A DNA stretch of 43,482 bases from Candidatus Woesearchaeota archaeon (GCA_964470085.1 CAYXZJ010000003.1:1-43482), one strand, 5' to 3'. Shown: positions 4,944 to 14,233, counted from the stretch's first letter. Program-made: numbers and translations. The notes: generated by a model from the sequence alone, not told the origin.

Positions 4944-5133
4944 TTTTCACCTCCTAATCATTAAAATATTATTTTCTTTAAATAAAATATTGAGTTTCAA
5001 AATATATTTTTTTTTAGGGTCTTGCTTATATACTGTTTAACTAAAAAATGAGTATTTGTATTGAATAGTTAAACATTTCACTATTGAGTTAAACAAAAAA
5101 CTTAAATAAACTAACAAAATCATTTAAAAAGCA

Positions 5134-5970
5134 TTAATCTTTTGAGAATTTGATTCCATTTGCTTTCTTAATTACACCTTTACGACAATCTTTTATATCT
5201 TCTTTTTTAGCTTTTTTCAAATATTTTTTCACTAGATGTTTTTTGTCTCTTATTTTTAATTCTTTGTTCGTATGAGGTCCGCCAATACATCCTCCTTCAC
5301 AGAATAAACAATCTAGAAATAGAACCTTTTTATTAGGTTTTTCTAGAAATTTAGAAACGTCTTTTATTCCATCAATTACTGTAACTTGATTTGATTTTAA
5401 GATTCCATCAATATGAGCAGTTTTGTATAAGGCTCCACTAAGTGGATATATTTTGGTATAATCATTATAAAATTTATCGAATTGAGCTTCAGCATTACTT
5501 TCTTTTATATTATTTTTCTCAAATAATAATTTTAGTTGTTGATAATCAATAACATAATCGACATATTTTGTTTTTTCTGCCTCGAGTTTTTTCATACTAC
5601 AAGGAGAAATAAAAATTATTTTATAATCAGGAAAATATTTTTTACATATTTTTGCCATTGCAACCATCGGAGAATCAATTGGCATCATATTACCGATAAG
5701 TTCAGGATGATTATTTTCTATATATGAAACAACTCCAGGACAAGTAGACGAAATAAGGATTTTTTTTGTGTTTTTTAATTTCTTATGATAATCACGATTA
5801 ATCATTTTAGCCCCGAAGGTTAACTCGACAACTTTATCGATGCCAAATTGCCTTAATTGCGTAATAATTGAAGGATATTTAAAATCTGTAACAAAACTTG
5901 GAGCCAACATTGCCAAACATTTTTGTTTCGATTTAATAACTTTCTCAATTTTCACTACATTATTTTTCAT
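5134..5970 (-). CDS. Minimal [FeFe]-hydrogenase-like protein (H-cluster domain only, ~278 aa)
   Basis: H-domain motifs are present: LAPSFV..FGAKM; SSTCPGVVSYIENNHPELIGNM (compare TSCCPGW...YPEL); SPCSMKKLE (compare MPCxxKxxE); FLDCLFCEGGCIGGP (compare ExMACxGGCxxGGG). I prefer the ATG at 5970, which has AGGAG 6 nt upstream and an ATGA overlap with the upstream stop. There is no ferredoxin-like F-domain. Confidence 0.8.
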   Translation of the reverse strand: MKNNVVKIEKVIKSKQKCLAMLAPSFVTDFKYPSIITQLRQFGIDKVVELTFGAKMINRDYHKKLKNTKKILISSTCPGVVSYIENNHPELIGNMMPIDSPMVAMAKICKKYFPDYKIIFISPCSMKKLEAEKTKYVDYVIDYQQLKLLFEKNNIKESNAEAQFDKFYNDYTKIYPLSGALYKTAHIDGILKSNQVTVIDGIKDVSKFLEKPNKKVLFLDCLFCEGGCIGGPHTNKELKIRDKKHLVKKYLKKAKKEDIKDCRKGVIKKANGIKFSKD

Positions 5971-6659
5971 AAACATCTCCTAATTGTTGTATATTTTTTT
6001 AAAAAAGTCACTTTATATTTGTACACTTTATCGTATGGAATAAACCATCTTGTAGCCTTAGAAATACTTGCATCTTCAATTATTTTTCTAAATAATCTAA
6101 TAGAATTGCCATGAGCAGAAATAGCAATATCGGTTTTATTCTCTTCCATTATTTCAACAAGAGATTCAATAAATTTTCTTACTCTTTTTTCTACATCTTC
6201 AAAACTTTCTCCTTTCAGTGCTTTATTTTTCCAACCTCTATGAATAGAGTCATATTCTATACGTCCTAAAAATTGAATTATATTATTCTTTTCTTCTCTA
6301 GTAAAATTATTTTTAGGAAATTGTAAATTTAATAATTGTTCTCCTGTCAATTTAATAAAATTATCATGACTTATACCATTAAGTATACCATAACTTCTTT
6401 CTATAATTTCATCGTCAATAATTGTTTTTTTACATTCAGGGTGAAAAACTAGTACCTCATCTAACGTCTGTTTTGAACGATTTAAAGAAGACCTAATCGC
6501 AATTTCGAATTTTTTATTTTTTAATTTATTAGCAACACATTTAGCATCCGAAATTCCACTTTCCGTTAAACTTGGATTCTCCCATCCGGTAAATATTTTA
6601 TCTCGATTGAATGTGGTTTGTCCGTGCCTGAAAATATAGATGTAATAACTTTCTCTCAT
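5967..6659 (-). CDS. Histidine phosphatase superfamily protein (phosphoglycerate mutase-like)
   Basis: IYIFRHGQTTFNRDKIFTGWENPSLTESG carries the RHG catalytic motif, and a later ISAHGNSIR supplies the second His. ATGA overlaps occur at both ends. Confidence 0.8.
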   Translation of the reverse strand: MRESYYIYIFRHGQTTFNRDKIFTGWENPSLTESGISDAKCVANKLKNKKFEIAIRSSLNRSKQTLDEVLVFHPECKKTIIDDEIIERSYGILNGISHDNFIKLTGEQLLNLQFPKNNFTREEKNNIIQFLGRIEYDSIHRGWKNKALKGESFEDVEKRVRKFIESLVEIMEENKTDIAISAHGNSIRLFRKIIEDASISKATRWFIPYDKVYKYKVTFLKKYTTIRRCL

Positions 6660-7447
6660 TTTATTTTTTCCTGAAGAGTTGGTTTTAATGTAGAAAAGAT
6701 TATTCCCAATGGAATTTTTCCTTCTTTTGAATTATAATTAAATTCTTCTGCTATTTTTTTTGCCTTTTCATAATCATAATTGTCTTCTATTTTATACATA
6801 TATTTGTCTTTATTATTTGCATCTAAGTTAAATATTAAACAATCTTGAATGACTTCAACGAACGAAAATCCTTTGTGTTCAATTGCTTTTGTGAAAACTT
6901 CTGTCATATGTGAAATGTCTCGAGCATTTGTTCTAGCGACAAAAGTTGCTCCACATGCAATAGCAATTCTAATTGGATTAAATGGCTCATTTTCCTCACC
7001 TTTAGGTTTTACTTTCGTAATAAATCCTTTTTGTGAAGTTGGTGTAGATTGACCAGTAGTCAAAGAAAAACTTTGATTATCATGTAAAATTAAAGTCATA
7101 TTTGAATTATATCTAAAAGCGTGAATAAAATGTTCCATGCCTTCAGAGTATACCGCTCCATCTCCCGCAAAAGCAACAACCTTAAGTTTAGGATTTGCGA
7201 TACTTATTCCCAAGGCAGTCGGAATTGAACGTCCATGTAAACCATAAATTCCACTCAAATTCAAATAATCAAATATTTTGGCATGACAACCAATATCAGT
7301 TACCATTGCAAAATCACTTTGTTTACATTTTTTTGTATCAATAAATCCAGCAACAGTTTGTTTGAATGCTTCAAGAATCATATAATTAGGACAACCAGGA
7401 CACCAAGTAATTTCTTCTTTTGTTTTTAATTTATCCTTCGTATTCAT
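6656..7447 (-). CDS. 2-oxoacid:ferredoxin oxidoreductase, beta (TPP-binding) subunit
   Basis: WCPGCPNYMIL, DIGCHAK, GLHGRSIPTALGI and AFAGDGAVYSEGMEHFIHAFRYNSNMTLILHDNQSFSLTTGQ (GDG...N TPP motif). Confidence 0.9.
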   Translation of the reverse strand: MNTKDKLKTKEEITWCPGCPNYMILEAFKQTVAGFIDTKKCKQSDFAMVTDIGCHAKIFDYLNLSGIYGLHGRSIPTALGISIANPKLKVVAFAGDGAVYSEGMEHFIHAFRYNSNMTLILHDNQSFSLTTGQSTPTSQKGFITKVKPKGEENEPFNPIRIAIACGATFVARTNARDISHMTEVFTKAIEHKGFSFVEVIQDCLIFNLDANNKDKYMYKIEDNYDYEKAKKIAEEFNYNSKEGKIPLGIIFSTLKPTLQEKIK

Positions 7448-8958
7448 TTTATCATCTTTTTAATTTGTTTATTTAATTCATCAGCAAAAAATGGTCTTCC
7501 ATCATATTTCAAAATTTTATCTTTTATTTCGATACCTATTTTTTGTTTAATAAGAGAACCTAATTGCGCAGTTGCATTATTTTCTATCAAAACTACCTTT
7601 GATGCTTTTTTAATTTCTTGTTCTATTTCTTTAGAAAAAGGAGATAGATAAATAATTTGTAGAAACTTAGCATCAATATCTCTAATTGAATCCTTTATTG
7701 CTCCTTTAGTAGAACCCCAACCAATAATCAAATTTTTAGATTTTTTTCTTCCATATGTTTTATACATAACTAATTTAGAAACATCTAACTCGATATTTTT
7801 TATTTTACCTAATCTAGAGTTAACGTTGTTTATAGTAATTAACGAATCTTCGGTCGAATTTTTATTTATATTCATCTCATAACTCGAAGCTTTAACAATT
7901 TTAGATCCAGGTATACTTCTAGAAATCTTTATTGGTGTAAGTTTATGATCTATTTTATTCTCAGAATATTCTCCTTCCGCTAAATGTTTATCTGATAATA
8001 AAATAGATAATACACCATACTTTTCTGATAACATCAATAATTCATTTGTTTTTTCAATCGCCTCTATTGGATCACCTGGTGCACAAACAACTCTAGCAAA
8101 TTCCCCATGACCTGCATATAATGCAACGTTTAAGTCGGACTGAGAAGTATACGTAGGAACTCCTGTAGCAGGTCCAGGTCTAGATGCTAAATAAACAGTT
8201 AATGGAATTTCACTTATTCCCTGCAAACTAAAAGCTTCGGTCATTAAATCAAATCCACCACCACTTGTTCCAATCATTGTTAATTTGCCAGCAAAACTTG
8301 TTCCAAGAGCCATATTCGCAACAGCAATCTCATTTTCCGCTTGAAAAACCTTTAATGATTCGTTTTGTATTTTTGCAATTTCATTTAAAACTCCAGTTGC
8401 CGGAGTCATTGGGTAACTAATAAAAAAGTTTAAGTTAGATTTTTTAGCACCAATTGCAACGGCTTCACTTCCAGACATTATAGTCAATTTATTCTTTAAT
8501 TTCTTTAAATTAAATTTGGTTTCTTCTGAATCATATCCCATTAATACAGCCTCATTTGCCTCTTTAGAATTAAAGTGTTTTTTTACGATTTGTACTAAAA
8601 TATCTTTAGAAATCCCAAAAATCTTTGTAATTTTTCCACATAAAATCAAATTAAGGTTTTTATTGGTATAATTAGTCTCATCCTTTAATATTAATCCACC
8701 TCTTTTTAACTGTCCACGATGCAAAATTTCTGTATGATTGTCCAGCGCTACAATAATATCAACAAAAAAATCAGTACTTGCAGTTTCAGTATCAGAAAAA
8801 TTCAAAACATTAAAATTATGTCCACCACGAACTAAACTTTGATAATCTCTATAATTGAATGTAAAATATCCATAACTTGTCAAAATTTCTGACATTATCT
8901 GCGACACTTTATTTATTCCTTGTCCAGCAGAACCACCAATAAGAATATTATACCTCAT
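7444..8958 (-). CDS. 2-oxoacid:ferredoxin oxidoreductase, fused gamma-alpha subunit
   Basis: The N-terminus MRYNILIGGSAGQGINKVSQI...RGGHNF is the gamma domain. GSEAVAIGAKKSNLNFFISYPMTPATGVLNE is the alpha domain. I place the start at the ATG at 8958, preceded by GAGGTGAAA. The track start at 8964 is a GTG inside the SD. Confidence 0.9.
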   Translation of the reverse strand: MRYNILIGGSAGQGINKVSQIMSEILTSYGYFTFNYRDYQSLVRGGHNFNVLNFSDTETASTDFFVDIIVALDNHTEILHRGQLKRGGLILKDETNYTNKNLNLILCGKITKIFGISKDILVQIVKKHFNSKEANEAVLMGYDSEETKFNLKKLKNKLTIMSGSEAVAIGAKKSNLNFFISYPMTPATGVLNEIAKIQNESLKVFQAENEIAVANMALGTSFAGKLTMIGTSGGGFDLMTEAFSLQGISEIPLTVYLASRPGPATGVPTYTSQSDLNVALYAGHGEFARVVCAPGDPIEAIEKTNELLMLSEKYGVLSILLSDKHLAEGEYSENKIDHKLTPIKISRSIPGSKIVKASSYEMNINKNSTEDSLITINNVNSRLGKIKNIELDVSKLVMYKTYGRKKSKNLIIGWGSTKGAIKDSIRDIDAKFLQIIYLSPFSKEIEQEIKKASKVVLIENNATAQLGSLIKQKIGIEIKDKILKYDGRPFFADELNKQIKKMIK

Positions 8959-8960
8959 TT

Positions 8961-8967
8961 TCACCTC
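8961..8967 (-). promoter_or_regulatory. Shine-Dalgarno (GAGGTGA) of the OFOR operon
   Basis: The minus strand reads GAGGTGAAAATG, the same 12-mer as at 12806..12817 and 25649..25660. Confidence 0.6.
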
Positions 8968-9008
8968 AAAGAGAATAAAACCCTTATTTTATTTAAATCT
9001 TTCTTTAA

Positions 9009-10244
9009 TTAAACAATTCTACTTGTCGCTTTTTTTGGTCCCCAAACACAAGCATCATTACAATCTCTCGGATTTTCTAAACATTTTGGTCTATTATAGA
9101 ATTCAACACCTTTTTCTTTTTTATATTGCTTATATTTTTCAGCTGTCTGAACGGTATTTTTCATTATTTCATATTGAGCCTTACCACAAATTCTTTCTGT
9201 TGTTTTTAATTCAAAAGCTTCAATAGTTCCACTTTCATTTACCTTTACTAATTGAGCCTGCGGGATATCATTTAATGCAATTTTTTCTAAATCAGAAATC
9301 CATTCTTTTTTATTACCAGACTGATTAACAATTTCTGGGACATAAAATCCATATGGAGCTCCAATATTTAATCCATCTGAAATATGATAATTAATTGTTC
9401 TGTGTCTTTGAGCTTGAGCTAATCCAGCAAAACTCATTAAATACGAAGTAGAATAAACATCTCCGAAATATTCTTTGACTTGTCGTGAATTAAATAAAGA
9501 TAATTTTTTGCAAGATTTAGATTCTAAACCATCAATTAAAAATGGAGATAGTTTATAATAAAAATCATCTAACGAATTTTGAATATTAATAGATAGCTCT
9601 AAATCGTCTGGTCCTTTGTAAACTAAGAAAAATGGTTGAGATTGAGAAATTACATTAAGCAAAAAATTAATTTGTCTTAAATTGGCAGTATATGCCATTT
9701 TTGTAGGAGTAAATATACTAGTCATATAACGAGCATTTTCTTGAGCTAATTTTTTTACCGCAATTTCTTTATCATTAACTGCGGGATATATTTTATCAAT
9801 CTCAGGAATTAAAATATCCATCCATTTGTTATACAATTTTAATTGTTCAGAATCAATATCTTTCATTTGTGTATACCTAGCAGATTTTTCACTAGTAACA
9901 TATTGTTTTTCATTATTTAATATCATAGCAGCAATCTTTGGAATATCCTCGATATACAAGTTTAACCAAATATGTTCAAAGACACTATGATGTTTTGATG
10001 GTAAAATTTGTTTGTTGATTAAATCAGATTTGTAATCTTCTTTCACTAAATCATCCCAACCTTTGTTCGAATAACAAATTCTAGCAAAATTTTGAGTAAA
10101 ACATTTTAACGCGTCCTGTTGTGTTTGAAGCTCGTCAAGACTCGTAAATTGTAAAATATTTTGAATACTTCTATATTTTTTTTGAAATTCAGAATCCTCA
10201 TCTGCTGGTACAGGTGAAGAAATTCCCACTAATTGAATTTTCAT
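9009..10244 (-). CDS. thyX: ThyX-like (flavin-dependent thymidylate synthase) protein, apparent tandem two-lobe form
   Basis: The N-lobe has ARICYS, HHSVFEH, TSEKSARYT and AQENARY...NLRQINFLL. The C-lobe has LAQAQRHRTINYHIS and ERICGKAQYEIMK. At 411 aa it is nearly twice the usual ThyX length. Confidence 0.55.
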   Translation of the reverse strand: MKIQLVGISSPVPADEDSEFQKKYRSIQNILQFTSLDELQTQQDALKCFTQNFARICYSNKGWDDLVKEDYKSDLINKQILPSKHHSVFEHIWLNLYIEDIPKIAAMILNNEKQYVTSEKSARYTQMKDIDSEQLKLYNKWMDILIPEIDKIYPAVNDKEIAVKKLAQENARYMTSIFTPTKMAYTANLRQINFLLNVISQSQPFFLVYKGPDDLELSINIQNSLDDFYYKLSPFLIDGLESKSCKKLSLFNSRQVKEYFGDVYSTSYLMSFAGLAQAQRHRTINYHISDGLNIGAPYGFYVPEIVNQSGNKKEWISDLEKIALNDIPQAQLVKVNESGTIEAFELKTTERICGKAQYEIMKNTVQTAEKYKQYKKEKGVEFYNRPKCLENPRDCNDACVWGPKKATSRIV

Positions 10245-12805: not shown

Positions 12806-12812
12806 GAGGTGA
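12806..12812 (+). promoter_or_regulatory. Shine-Dalgarno (GAGGTGA) of the RuBisCO gene
   Basis: gaggtgaaaATG. The track start at 12809 is a GTG inside this SD. Confidence 0.6.
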
Positions 12813-12814
12813 AA

Positions 12815-14233
12815 ATGGAAGATAGATTTCTAAAAACATTAAATTCTCATCAAAAAGCGTATATTAATTTAGAATTAAAAGATCCAAAAAATGGCGAATA
12901 TATGCTTGGAGTTTATCATTTAGTACCAAATAACGATTATAATATGTTACAAGCAGCAGCCGAAGTCGCAGCCGAATCATCTACTGGAACAAATTTCGCC
13001 GTAAAAACAGAAACCGCATTTTCTAGAACAATGAATGCATTAGTTTACCAGATTGATTATAAGAAGAATTTAGCTTGGATTGCATTTCCTTGGAGACTTT
13101 TTGACAGAGGTGGAAACGTACAAAATATCTTAACATATGTTGTTGGAAATATTCTAGGAATGAAACAAGTTAAAGCGCTAAAATTATTAGATGTTTGGTT
13201 TCCAAGTTCAATGTTGGAACAATATGACGGACCAAGTTATACGTTAGATGATATGAGAAAATATTTGGGAGTTAAAGGACGACCAATATTAGGAACAATA
13301 ATAAAACCTAAAATGGGACTAACAAGTGCAGAATATGCAGAAGCTTGCTACGATTTCTGGGTCGGTGGCGGAGATTTTGTCAAAAATGACGAACCGCAAG
13401 CAAATCAAGATTTTTGTCCATATGATAAAATGGTACAAAACGTAAAAGAAGCAATGGACAAGGCAGTCAAAGAAACTGGAAAGAAAAAAATCCACTCATT
13501 TAATGTTTCATCAGCAGATTTTGATACAATGATTCAAAGATGTGAAATGATAAAAAACGCAGGATTCGAAAAAGGAAGTTATGCTTTTTTGATTGATGGT
13601 TTAACTGCTGGTTGGATGGCAGTTCAAACACTAAGAAGAAGATATCCCGATGTATTTATTCACTTTCATAGAGCTTCTCATGGAGCATTTACAAGAGAAG
13701 AAAATCCTATTGGAATGTCTGTTTTAGTTTTATCAAAATTCGCAAGATTAGCCGGTGCGTCAGGAATTCATACAGGGACTGCGGGAGTTGGAAAAATGGC
13801 TGGAAGTAAAGAAGAAGATAAAGTTTCAGCATTAAGTATTTCAAAATTCAAACAAAAAGGACATTTTTTTGACCAAAGTTGGTCGAAAATAAACGAAAAA
13901 GATAAAGACATTATTAATTTAACAAAAAAAGATATTGCTAATCATTTAGTTCTGGAAGATGATTCTTGGAGAGGAATGAAAAAATGTACACCAATAATAT
14001 CGGGAGGATTAAATCCAACACTACTAAAACCATTTATTGACGTTATGGGAAATGTAGATTTTATAACAACAATGGGAGCTGGCTGCCACGCTCATCCCGA
14101 TGGAACAACGGCAGGAGCAAAAGCTCTAGTTCAAGCATGTGAAGCTTATAAGAAAAAAATAACCATAAAAGAATATGCAAAAACACATAAAGAATTAGCA
14201 AAAGCAATTAAGTTTTTTTCTCAAAAACAATAA
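12815..14233 (+). CDS. rbcL: RuBisCO large subunit, form II/III type
   Basis: GTIIKPKMGLT, GGGDFVKNDEPQ (carbamylated Lys motif), HFHRASHGAF, GIHTGTAGVGKMAG, WRGMKKCTPIISGGLNP (close to the form II block WGGMKACTPIISGGMN), MGAGCHAHPDG and EYAKTHKELAKAIKFF. Confidence 0.92.
   Translation: MEDRFLKTLNSHQKAYINLELKDPKNGEYMLGVYHLVPNNDYNMLQAAAEVAAESSTGTNFAVKTETAFSRTMNALVYQIDYKKNLAWIAFPWRLFDRGGNVQNILTYVVGNILGMKQVKALKLLDVWFPSSMLEQYDGPSYTLDDMRKYLGVKGRPILGTIIKPKMGLTSAEYAEACYDFWVGGGDFVKNDEPQANQDFCPYDKMVQNVKEAMDKAVKETGKKKIHSFNVSSADFDTMIQRCEMIKNAGFEKGSYAFLIDGLTAGWMAVQTLRRRYPDVFIHFHRASHGAFTREENPIGMSVLVLSKFARLAGASGIHTGTAGVGKMAGSKEEDKVSALSISKFKQKGHFFDQSWSKINEKDKDIINLTKKDIANHLVLEDDSWRGMKKCTPIISGGLNPTLLKPFIDVMGNVDFITTMGAGCHAHPDGTTAGAKALVQACEAYKKKITIKEYAKTHKELAKAIKFFSQKQ

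Follow-up and report, generated by a model that had tools for sequence, protein, structure and literature searches.

We analyzed a contig of 43,482 nucleotides filed under Candidatus Woesearchaeota archaeon (GCA_964470085.1, CAYXZJ010000003.1:1-43482; hereafter the window, at its full length) and identified four successive open reading frames (ORFs) on its minus strand, running from 8958 to 5134. They are predicted to encode a 2-oxoacid:ferredoxin oxidoreductase (OFOR; oorA and oorB), a histidine-phosphatase-fold protein and a very small [FeFe] hydrogenase homolog (hydA). The assembly that holds the window (as contig C3) has 602,474 bp in 44 contigs, a G+C content of 29% and a completeness of 87.7%, so that "not found" in this genome does not mean "absent". 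The host is a Pacearchaeota-type DPANN archaeon (Pacearchaeota/Nanoarchaeota), very small and of symbiotic type; the records of the homologs and related loci are named Pacearchaeota, Woesearchaeota or Nanoarchaeota archaeon. For comparison we used 61 related genomes, including 36 congeners and 13 genomes of high quality, which because of their kinship are not independent samples, and a neighbourhood set of 80 species-level hydA loci plus the window (81 in total). The features of the locus were as follows.

7444 to 8958, minus strand: OFOR alpha subunit (oorA), a shortened fusion of gamma (domain III) and alpha, 504 aa; PF01558 (POR) and PF01855 (POR_N)
6656 to 7447, minus strand: OFOR beta subunit (oorB), 263 aa, predicted to bind thiamine pyrophosphate (TPP) and a [4Fe-4S] cluster; PF02775 (TPP_enzyme_C), 113.7 bits
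5967 to 6659, minus strand: histidine-phosphatase-fold protein, likely a cofactor-dependent phosphoglycerate mutase (dPGM), 230 aa; PF00300 (His_Phos_1), 107.6 bits
5134 to 5970, minus strand: predicted H-domain-only [FeFe] hydrogenase (hydA) of the group E "ultraminimal" type, 278 aa (280 aa from 5976); PF02906 (Fe_hyd_lg_C), 150.4 bits
8961 to 8967, minus strand: Shine-Dalgarno sequence GAGGTGA, preceding the ATG of the first gene
8990 to 8997, minus strand: candidate archaeal TATA box TTTAAATA, its end 31 nt from the ATG
5091 to 5130, minus strand: candidate archaeal oligo-T terminator, TTTTT/TTTT/TTTTTT after the hydrogenase stop

The three junctions of the four genes are ATGA start/stop overlaps (7444-7447, 6656-6659 and 5967-5970). 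The original prediction, made from the sequence of the window, had described this arrangement and a Shine-Dalgarno sequence ahead of the first gene, and the ORF listing and the sequence confirmed both. Genome-wide, an ATGA overlap was found in 26 of 431 same-strand neighbour pairs (~6%, by a crude ORF call). Three consecutive overlaps are beyond chance at this base rate and fit one translationally coupled operon. All three junctions were bridged with 0-1 mismatches by contigs of two independent landfill metagenome studies (X4 and X5), indicating that the gene order is real and not an assembly artefact. An alternative GTG start of the first gene at 8964 falls within the GAGGTGA; since the oorA proteins of relatives start with MRLNILIGG, we took the ATG at 8958 as the start and the GTG as a false start inside the Shine-Dalgarno sequence. 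The hydrogenase gene has a second possible ATG at 5976, and the spacing of an AGGAG (6 nt to the ATG at 5970, 0 nt to that at 5976) favoured the start at 5970. The candidate TATA box and the candidate terminator were read directly from the sequence as possible archaeal signals, and TTTAAATA sits in the 50-nt gap that separates a thyX-like gene from the operon. A scan with sigma-70 promoter and hairpin-terminator models, which are not applicable to archaea, gave no excess (23 vs 26.8 in shuffles).

The first two genes are predicted to encode a two-subunit, Sulfolobus-type OFOR with one [4Fe-4S] cluster. The best NCBIfam models were TIGR03710 for alpha (406.6 bits, under the cut-off of 482.75) and TIGR02177 for beta (235.7 bits, under the cut-off of 261.9), both of which describe two-subunit 2-oxoacid:acceptor oxidoreductase families; the sub-cut-off scores fit a shortened alpha subunit and divergence. 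The YPMTP motif was present in alpha. Two-subunit OFORs of the S. tokodaii type have a single [4Fe-4S] cluster and no delta subunit or ferredoxin domain. The missing delta subunit, which the original prediction had left unexplained along with the missing ferredoxin, is thus a feature of the class and not a gap. No Fer4 ORF was found within the window; a ferredoxin gene lies on another contig, as described below. The closest solved OFOR structures were the two-subunit enzymes of Sulfolobus tokodaii, 5b46 and 5b48. The best solved relative of alpha was StOFOR alpha (5b48_A, 627 aa; 209.5 bits in three stretches), and beta matched 5b48_B with 169 bits, its WCPGC, IGC and QDC motifs aligning with the [4Fe-4S] cysteines of that chain so that all four Cys are kept. 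The window enzyme therefore resembles the (alpha-beta)2 enzyme of S. tokodaii (PDB 5b46/5b47/5b48) in the fusion of domains III+I+II in alpha, in a beta subunit with TPP and a sole [4Fe-4S] cluster, and in having no delta/ferredoxin domain. It differs in its scores under the NCBIfam cut-offs and in an alpha subunit that is ~120 residues shorter (504 vs 627 aa), residues being lost from the N-terminal part (domain III) and behind the POR_N region. Alpha subunits of 505-514 aa in relatives indicated that the short form is common to all of them.

The last gene of the operon encodes a protein that fits the group E ultraminimal type of [FeFe] hydrogenase, as judged from its sequence and predicted fold. 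One PF02906 match spanned residues 19-234, and there were no additional Cys motifs. Alignment to CpI indicated that the H-cluster ligands are kept, with C77, C124, C224 and C228 corresponding to CpI C300, C355, C499 and C503, and that K127 and E130 align with CpI K358 and E361. Across an alignment of 37 short members of the family, which share 30-72% identity, these four cysteines, K127 and E130 did not vary. The pocket motifs AP(S), which aligned to APA of T. maritima HydA, and SP were invariant or nearly so among family members. An AlphaFold2 model was a single domain with a pLDDT of 96.3, and its best solved matches by Foldseek were all [FeFe]-hydrogenase H-domains (TMq 0.72-0.83). Among proteins of near length we found 1205 homologs at E ≤ 1e-10, many of them named Pacearchaeota. 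In a 50%-identity library ~25 short clusters stood apart from multidomain relatives of 550-800 aa, and a tree of these sequences (built, like that of the 80 loci and the window, by a quick method) placed 24 of the 26 short proteins, together with one of 352 aa, on one side of a branch and the multidomain relatives on the opposite side (SH-aLRT 90).

The group E enzymes of Greening et al. 2024 (Cell 187:3357, PMC11216029) are very small [FeFe] hydrogenases of DPANN archaea, a kind to which the original prediction had alluded. According to that paper, group E proteins have a mean length of 286 aa, occur in Nanoarchaeota, Micrarchaeota and Iainarchaeota, and keep the H-cluster cysteines while differing in the proton-transfer residues; oorAB genes often adjoin them, and HydEFG are missing from most of the host genomes. 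The Fm enzyme of "Ca. Forterrea multitransposorum" is reported there to bind [2Fe]adt to form the H-cluster and to be active, with a bias to H2 production. The window protein is like the Fm and Na enzymes of that paper in its length (~280 aa), in consisting of the H-domain only, in the cysteines for a single [4Fe-4S] cluster and the [2Fe] site, in its changed proton-transfer residues, in its DPANN host, in the adjacent oorAB and in a genome where HydEFG were not found. This likeness is drawn from sequence and a predicted fold, whereas the activity of Fm was measured. The window differs from the group E loci in the mutase-like gene between oorB and hydA; the main text and legends of PMC11216029 mention none, and the main text has 0 instances of the word "phosphoglycerate".

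Two further observations concern the hydrogenase family. A homolog of 560-585 aa was present in eight congeners (G029, G035, G036, G012, G007, G002, G011 and G044), instead of or besides the small one, and matched the window hydrogenase at 31-35% identity across the first half of the H-domain. In addition, the hydA genes of four loci titled Fusobacteriaceae, "bacterium" or Paceibacterota (L098, L102, L122 and L133) nested among archaeal sequences, and these are probably mis-binned or mis-labelled contigs.

The 230-aa protein encoded between oorB and hydA is most likely a dPGM and the only phosphoglycerate mutase (PGM) of the genome, an assignment made from homology, conserved residues and genome content. 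Its top 16 solved matches were all PGM or bisphosphoglycerate mutase (BPGM), the best being 1fzt of S. pombe (70.8 bits), and true phosphatases ranked lower. The catalytic core (R11, H12, R61, E87 and H183) was invariant in 21 orthologs of 48-57% identity, and so were fourteen key residues and the FTGW, ERxYG and AHGNSxR motifs. When the active site of dPGM was mapped from yeast PGM1, eleven of its 13 residues were found again and were invariant (R11, H12, N18, T24, G25, R61, E87, Y90, R141, H183 and N185). Of the eight substrate residues specific to dPGM (S11, N14, T20, Y89, K97, R113, R114 and N183 in yeast numbering), six are kept, and K97 and R113 are replaced. The protein is like the short monomeric dPGM of S. 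pombe (1fzt) in the RHG phosphohistidine motif, in the three motifs named above, in its small size and in having no C-terminal tail. An extra loop of ~20 residues in the window mutase is not found in its two nearest cluster-linked orthologs.

We then compared the distribution of this protein with that of the cofactor-independent enzymes (iPGM/ApgM) over the 61 genomes, counting a strong mutase ortholog at E ≤ 1e-26 and an iPGM/ApgM when PF01676 scored above its cut-off. A strong mutase ortholog was found in 39 genomes and PF01676 in 18, with both in 0 and neither in 4. The congeners without a strong ortholog were exactly four (G029, G030, G035 and G036), and all of them had a 510-aa iPGM, so that within the genus this is a clean non-orthologous displacement of phosphoglycerate mutase. 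The switch between the two was seen several times over the 61 genomes, subject to their kinship. The iPGM of the four congeners is of bacterial type; the enzyme in other families of the order is of the ApgM type and 420 aa long. The genome that holds the window contains enolase and pyruvate kinase, and neither a PF01676 iPGM/ApgM nor any other PGM candidate was found in it. As the genome's only PGM, the 230-aa protein would belong to the same carbon path as OFOR, and most likely it closes the gap on the way from RuBisCO-derived 3-phosphoglycerate to pyruvate. The "phosphatase" whose place between redox genes had seemed unexplained would thereby find its explanation.

The conservation of the gene arrangement was assessed in the 81 species loci. 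OFOR genes lay ≤7 kb from hydA in 40 of them, and oorB directly adjoined hydA (overlapping or abutting) in 18. In one hydA clade of 31 members there was no OFOR nearby. Other neighbours of hydA were genes for the alpha type of ADP-forming acetyl-CoA synthetase (ACD; 7 loci) and for AMP-forming acyl-CoA synthetases (18 loci). Orthologs of the small hydrogenase were found in 12 of the 36 congeners and in one other of the 61 genomes (51-68% identity), while OFOR beta was found in 33 of the 36, indicating that an OFOR common in the genus is supplemented, in some members only, by the hydrogenase. The pairing of OFOR and hydA is an ancestral and widespread unit. The mutase ortholog is located away from the cluster in most of the genus, and it stands beside hydA in three species only. 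Besides the window these are L070 (CAZTFL010000001.1), the only other species with the full order oorA-oorB-mutase-hydA, and L076 (CAZZNU010000015.1), which has the mutase-hydA pair without OFOR. The hydA genes of the three form one group (SH-aLRT 93) and the tree requires one change, which makes a single insertion in a small clade the simplest account, and the mutase gene probably entered between oorB and hydA once. Linkage of OFOR and hydA is conserved among relatives, in favour of the original prediction, and only one other species has all four genes in the order of the window.

The OFOR cluster has taken up other genes as well. In four relatives, unrelated small genes are wedged between oorA and oorB with their ends overlapping or abutting, namely a phosphoribosyltransferase (L029:5691-6206), a GNAT protein (L031:5738-6163), a GNAT protein followed by a small membrane-like ORF (L030:8833-9617) and a nitroreductase (L032:4413-5012). 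Judging from these cases, the cluster tolerates insertions and appears to be a hotspot for them in this lineage.

The partners that the operon would need were sought in the window and in the rest of the genome. A search for ferredoxin, as proposed in the original prediction, found a 53-aa single-cluster ferredoxin (Fer4_13/Fer4_15) on contig C13; homologs were found in 54 of the 61 relatives, and none of the 13 high-quality genomes was without one. No ferredoxin gene was linked to hydA in the 80 loci, where proteins with Fe-S motifs occurred in three loci only. On C13 (L067:524-2184, minus strand) genes for an ArsR-family regulator and a class-V aminotransferase of the cysteine desulfurase type come after the ferredoxin gene in the same orientation, an arrangement that suggests a small Fe-S supply cluster. 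Two candidate pathway partners lie in the window outside the operon.

12809 to 14233, plus strand: RuBisCO large subunit; PF00016 (314.9 bits) and PF02788
38339 to 38920, plus strand: ATP-grasp_5 protein, candidate beta subunit of ACD; PF13549 (80.5 bits)

The RuBisCO gene is 3.8 kb from the operon, and the closest relative (L070) has a RuBisCO of 85% identity ~0.9 kb beyond hydA. An ACD alpha-type subunit (Succ_CoA_lig) is encoded on contig C1, and the genome also has an IF-2B-family isomerase and a 499-aa Glycos_transf_3 protein. No phosphoglycerate kinase (PGK) was found in the genome. The sole pyruvate kinase match (G000:C14:10635-11255; L064/L065) is an open frame of 226 aa aligned to positions 3-54 and 181-328 of Pfam PK; it seems to be without the middle of the domain and could be a minimal or a broken pyruvate kinase.

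Taken together, we consider it probable that the operon encodes the end of a minimal fermentation, in which 2-oxoacid oxidation by OFOR would lead to H2 release by the hydrogenase. Every enzymatic step of the chain proposed here is assigned by family membership. Salvage of nucleosides or AMP by the Glycos_transf_3 protein, the IF-2B-family isomerase and RuBisCO would yield 3-phosphoglycerate, which the mutase of the operon would convert to 2-phosphoglycerate. Enolase and pyruvate kinase would carry this through phosphoenolpyruvate to pyruvate. OFOR would then oxidize pyruvate (or another 2-oxoacid) to acyl-CoA and CO2 and reduce the 53-aa ferredoxin. ACD may produce ATP and acetate, and the hydrogenase would reoxidize the ferredoxin, making H2. 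The logic would be that of the clostridial and hydrogenosomal systems of pyruvate:ferredoxin oxidoreductase (PFOR), ferredoxin and [FeFe] hydrogenase, where the ferredoxin reduced during oxidation of a 2-oxoacid is regenerated as H2 is released. The present system differs from those in that its components are all minimal and in that the carbon would probably come from RuBisCO-based nucleoside salvage and not from glycolysis; no PGK was found. The original prediction of a fermentative electron-disposal module is therefore supported in its pairing of OFOR and hydrogenase, by the protein families, their linkage and the published group E loci (PMC11216029), while the description "self-contained" did not hold, since the ferredoxin is on another contig and HydE, HydF and HydG were not found.

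Several observations weigh against this fermentation scheme, and they bear on three alternative explanations. The hydrogenase-like protein could be no hydrogenase in vivo, carrying a [4Fe-4S] cluster only and acting as a small electron carrier, a redox sensor or an Fe-S assembly factor of the eukaryotic Nar1/NARF type. We regard this as unlikely, even though the maturation system and the active-site pocket both lend it weight. The genome had no match to HydE or HydG (TIGR03955 and TIGR03956), and the HydF search (TIGR03918) returned generic GTPases only, the best with 45.4 bits against a cut-off of 325.55, so that the HydE, HydF and HydG set of a canonical [FeFe] system was not found; the completeness of 88% limits this absence, as it does those of iPGM/ApgM and PGK. 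The proton-relay cysteine C299 of CpI is Thr in the window protein (SSTCP for TSCCP) and was never Cys across the family, CpI M353 is Ser and M497 is Leu. The canonical group A signature (TSCCP with C299, plus M353 and M497) is thus not present, and many of the nearest multidomain relatives are also without the CC pair, like sensory-type groups. Against these points, the group E enzyme of a closed genome without maturases is reported to bind [2Fe]adt and evolve H2 (PMC11216029). Between members of only 30-70% identity, the bridging C228, the equivalent of K358 and the AP(S)/SP motifs vary little or not at all, a pattern difficult to account for in a plain [4Fe-4S] protein, and the tight linkage of hydA to a ferredoxin-reducing enzyme also speaks for a hydrogenase. 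How an H-cluster is assembled without HydEFG is a question already posed in the literature, and it is not advanced by this locus. The mutase-like gene was considered as a hydrogenase maturation factor and excluded, as strong orthologs occur in many genomes without hydrogenase.

The 230-aa protein could likewise be a phosphatase (for phosphoserine, sugar phosphates or alpha-ribazole) that is unlinked to the redox genes and was placed among them by a neutral rearrangement. Its score with TIGR01258 (70.5 bits) is under the cut-off of 81.7, and it differs from classical dPGM in that the substrate-site Lys and one Arg are His (yeast K97 as H98 and R113 as H140), both His being invariant in orthologs. 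The GNAT, phosphoribosyltransferase and nitroreductase genes wedged into the OFOR cluster of relatives indicate that passengers are tolerated there, and in most of the genus the mutase ortholog lies elsewhere. This explanation nevertheless appears improbable to us. The complementarity with iPGM/ApgM over the 61 genomes was perfect, and no second PGM candidate was found despite the presence of enolase, pyruvate kinase and RuBisCO. The invariant FTGW, ERxYG and AHGNSxR motifs and the rank of PGMs above phosphatases among the solved structures point the same way, as does the retention of the mutase-hydA pair by three diverged species, of which one has it without OFOR. A third explanation joins OFOR and the hydrogenase in a physical complex, a "pyruvate:proton oxidoreductase" with direct transfer from the beta cluster to the H-cluster and no free ferredoxin. 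It would account for oorB and hydA overlapping or abutting in 18 species, for the reduction of both proteins to a single surface cluster and for the lack of a hydA-linked ferredoxin gene in 80 loci. Arguments against it are the occurrence of the small ferredoxin (54 of 61 relatives, 13 of 13 high-quality genomes), the fact that most of the genus has OFOR but not the small hydrogenase, the 31-member hydA clade without nearby OFOR and the gene inserted between oorB and hydA in the window itself; we consider such a complex very unlikely. Equally doubtful is the joint proposal of a docked, ferredoxin-independent OFOR-hydrogenase, a mutase co-translated with it in a small clade and an H-cluster assembled independently of HydEFG. 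If it were true, one transcript would span the flow from RuBisCO-derived 3-phosphoglycerate to H2. For the fermentation scheme that we prefer, two reservations are left: the substrate of OFOR may be pyruvate or another 2-oxoacid, and the small hydrogenase is found in only 12 of 36 congeners against 33 of 36 for OFOR.

The genes that flank the operon were also noted. Upstream, the gene at 9009-10244 (minus strand) encodes a ThyX-like protein of 411 aa, ~2x the usual length, of which Pfam Thy1 covers residues 51-192 only. Downstream, a 46-aa ORF with a strong Shine-Dalgarno sequence (P0271, 4803-4943, minus strand) lies in the 386-nt gap that follows hydA. It was left out of the operon, as it contains a single Cys pair without any Fe-S motif, and a different gene is found downstream of hydA in the closest relative (L070).

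The core of our interpretation, a module that leads from pyruvate to hydrogen, was already published in 2024 (PMC11216029), and the locus is a further example of it. It represents one more case in which a genome-reduced DPANN archaeon would use a hydrogenase of the smallest known [FeFe] kind, its gene beside those of a minimal OFOR, to dispose of the electrons of fermentation. The insertion of the mutase gene is a small, clade-restricted variant of this arrangement, and the OFOR-hydA cluster emerges as a likely insertion hotspot for unrelated small genes. What the analysis adds to the biology of the lineage is that the neighbouring "phosphatase" is probably its phosphoglycerate mutase, which in this genus stands as a non-orthologous replacement of iPGM/ApgM. 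Once the mutase is included, the predicted enzymes of this 0.6-Mb genome can be joined into a complete route that starts at nucleoside-derived 3-phosphoglycerate and ends in acetate, ATP and H2.

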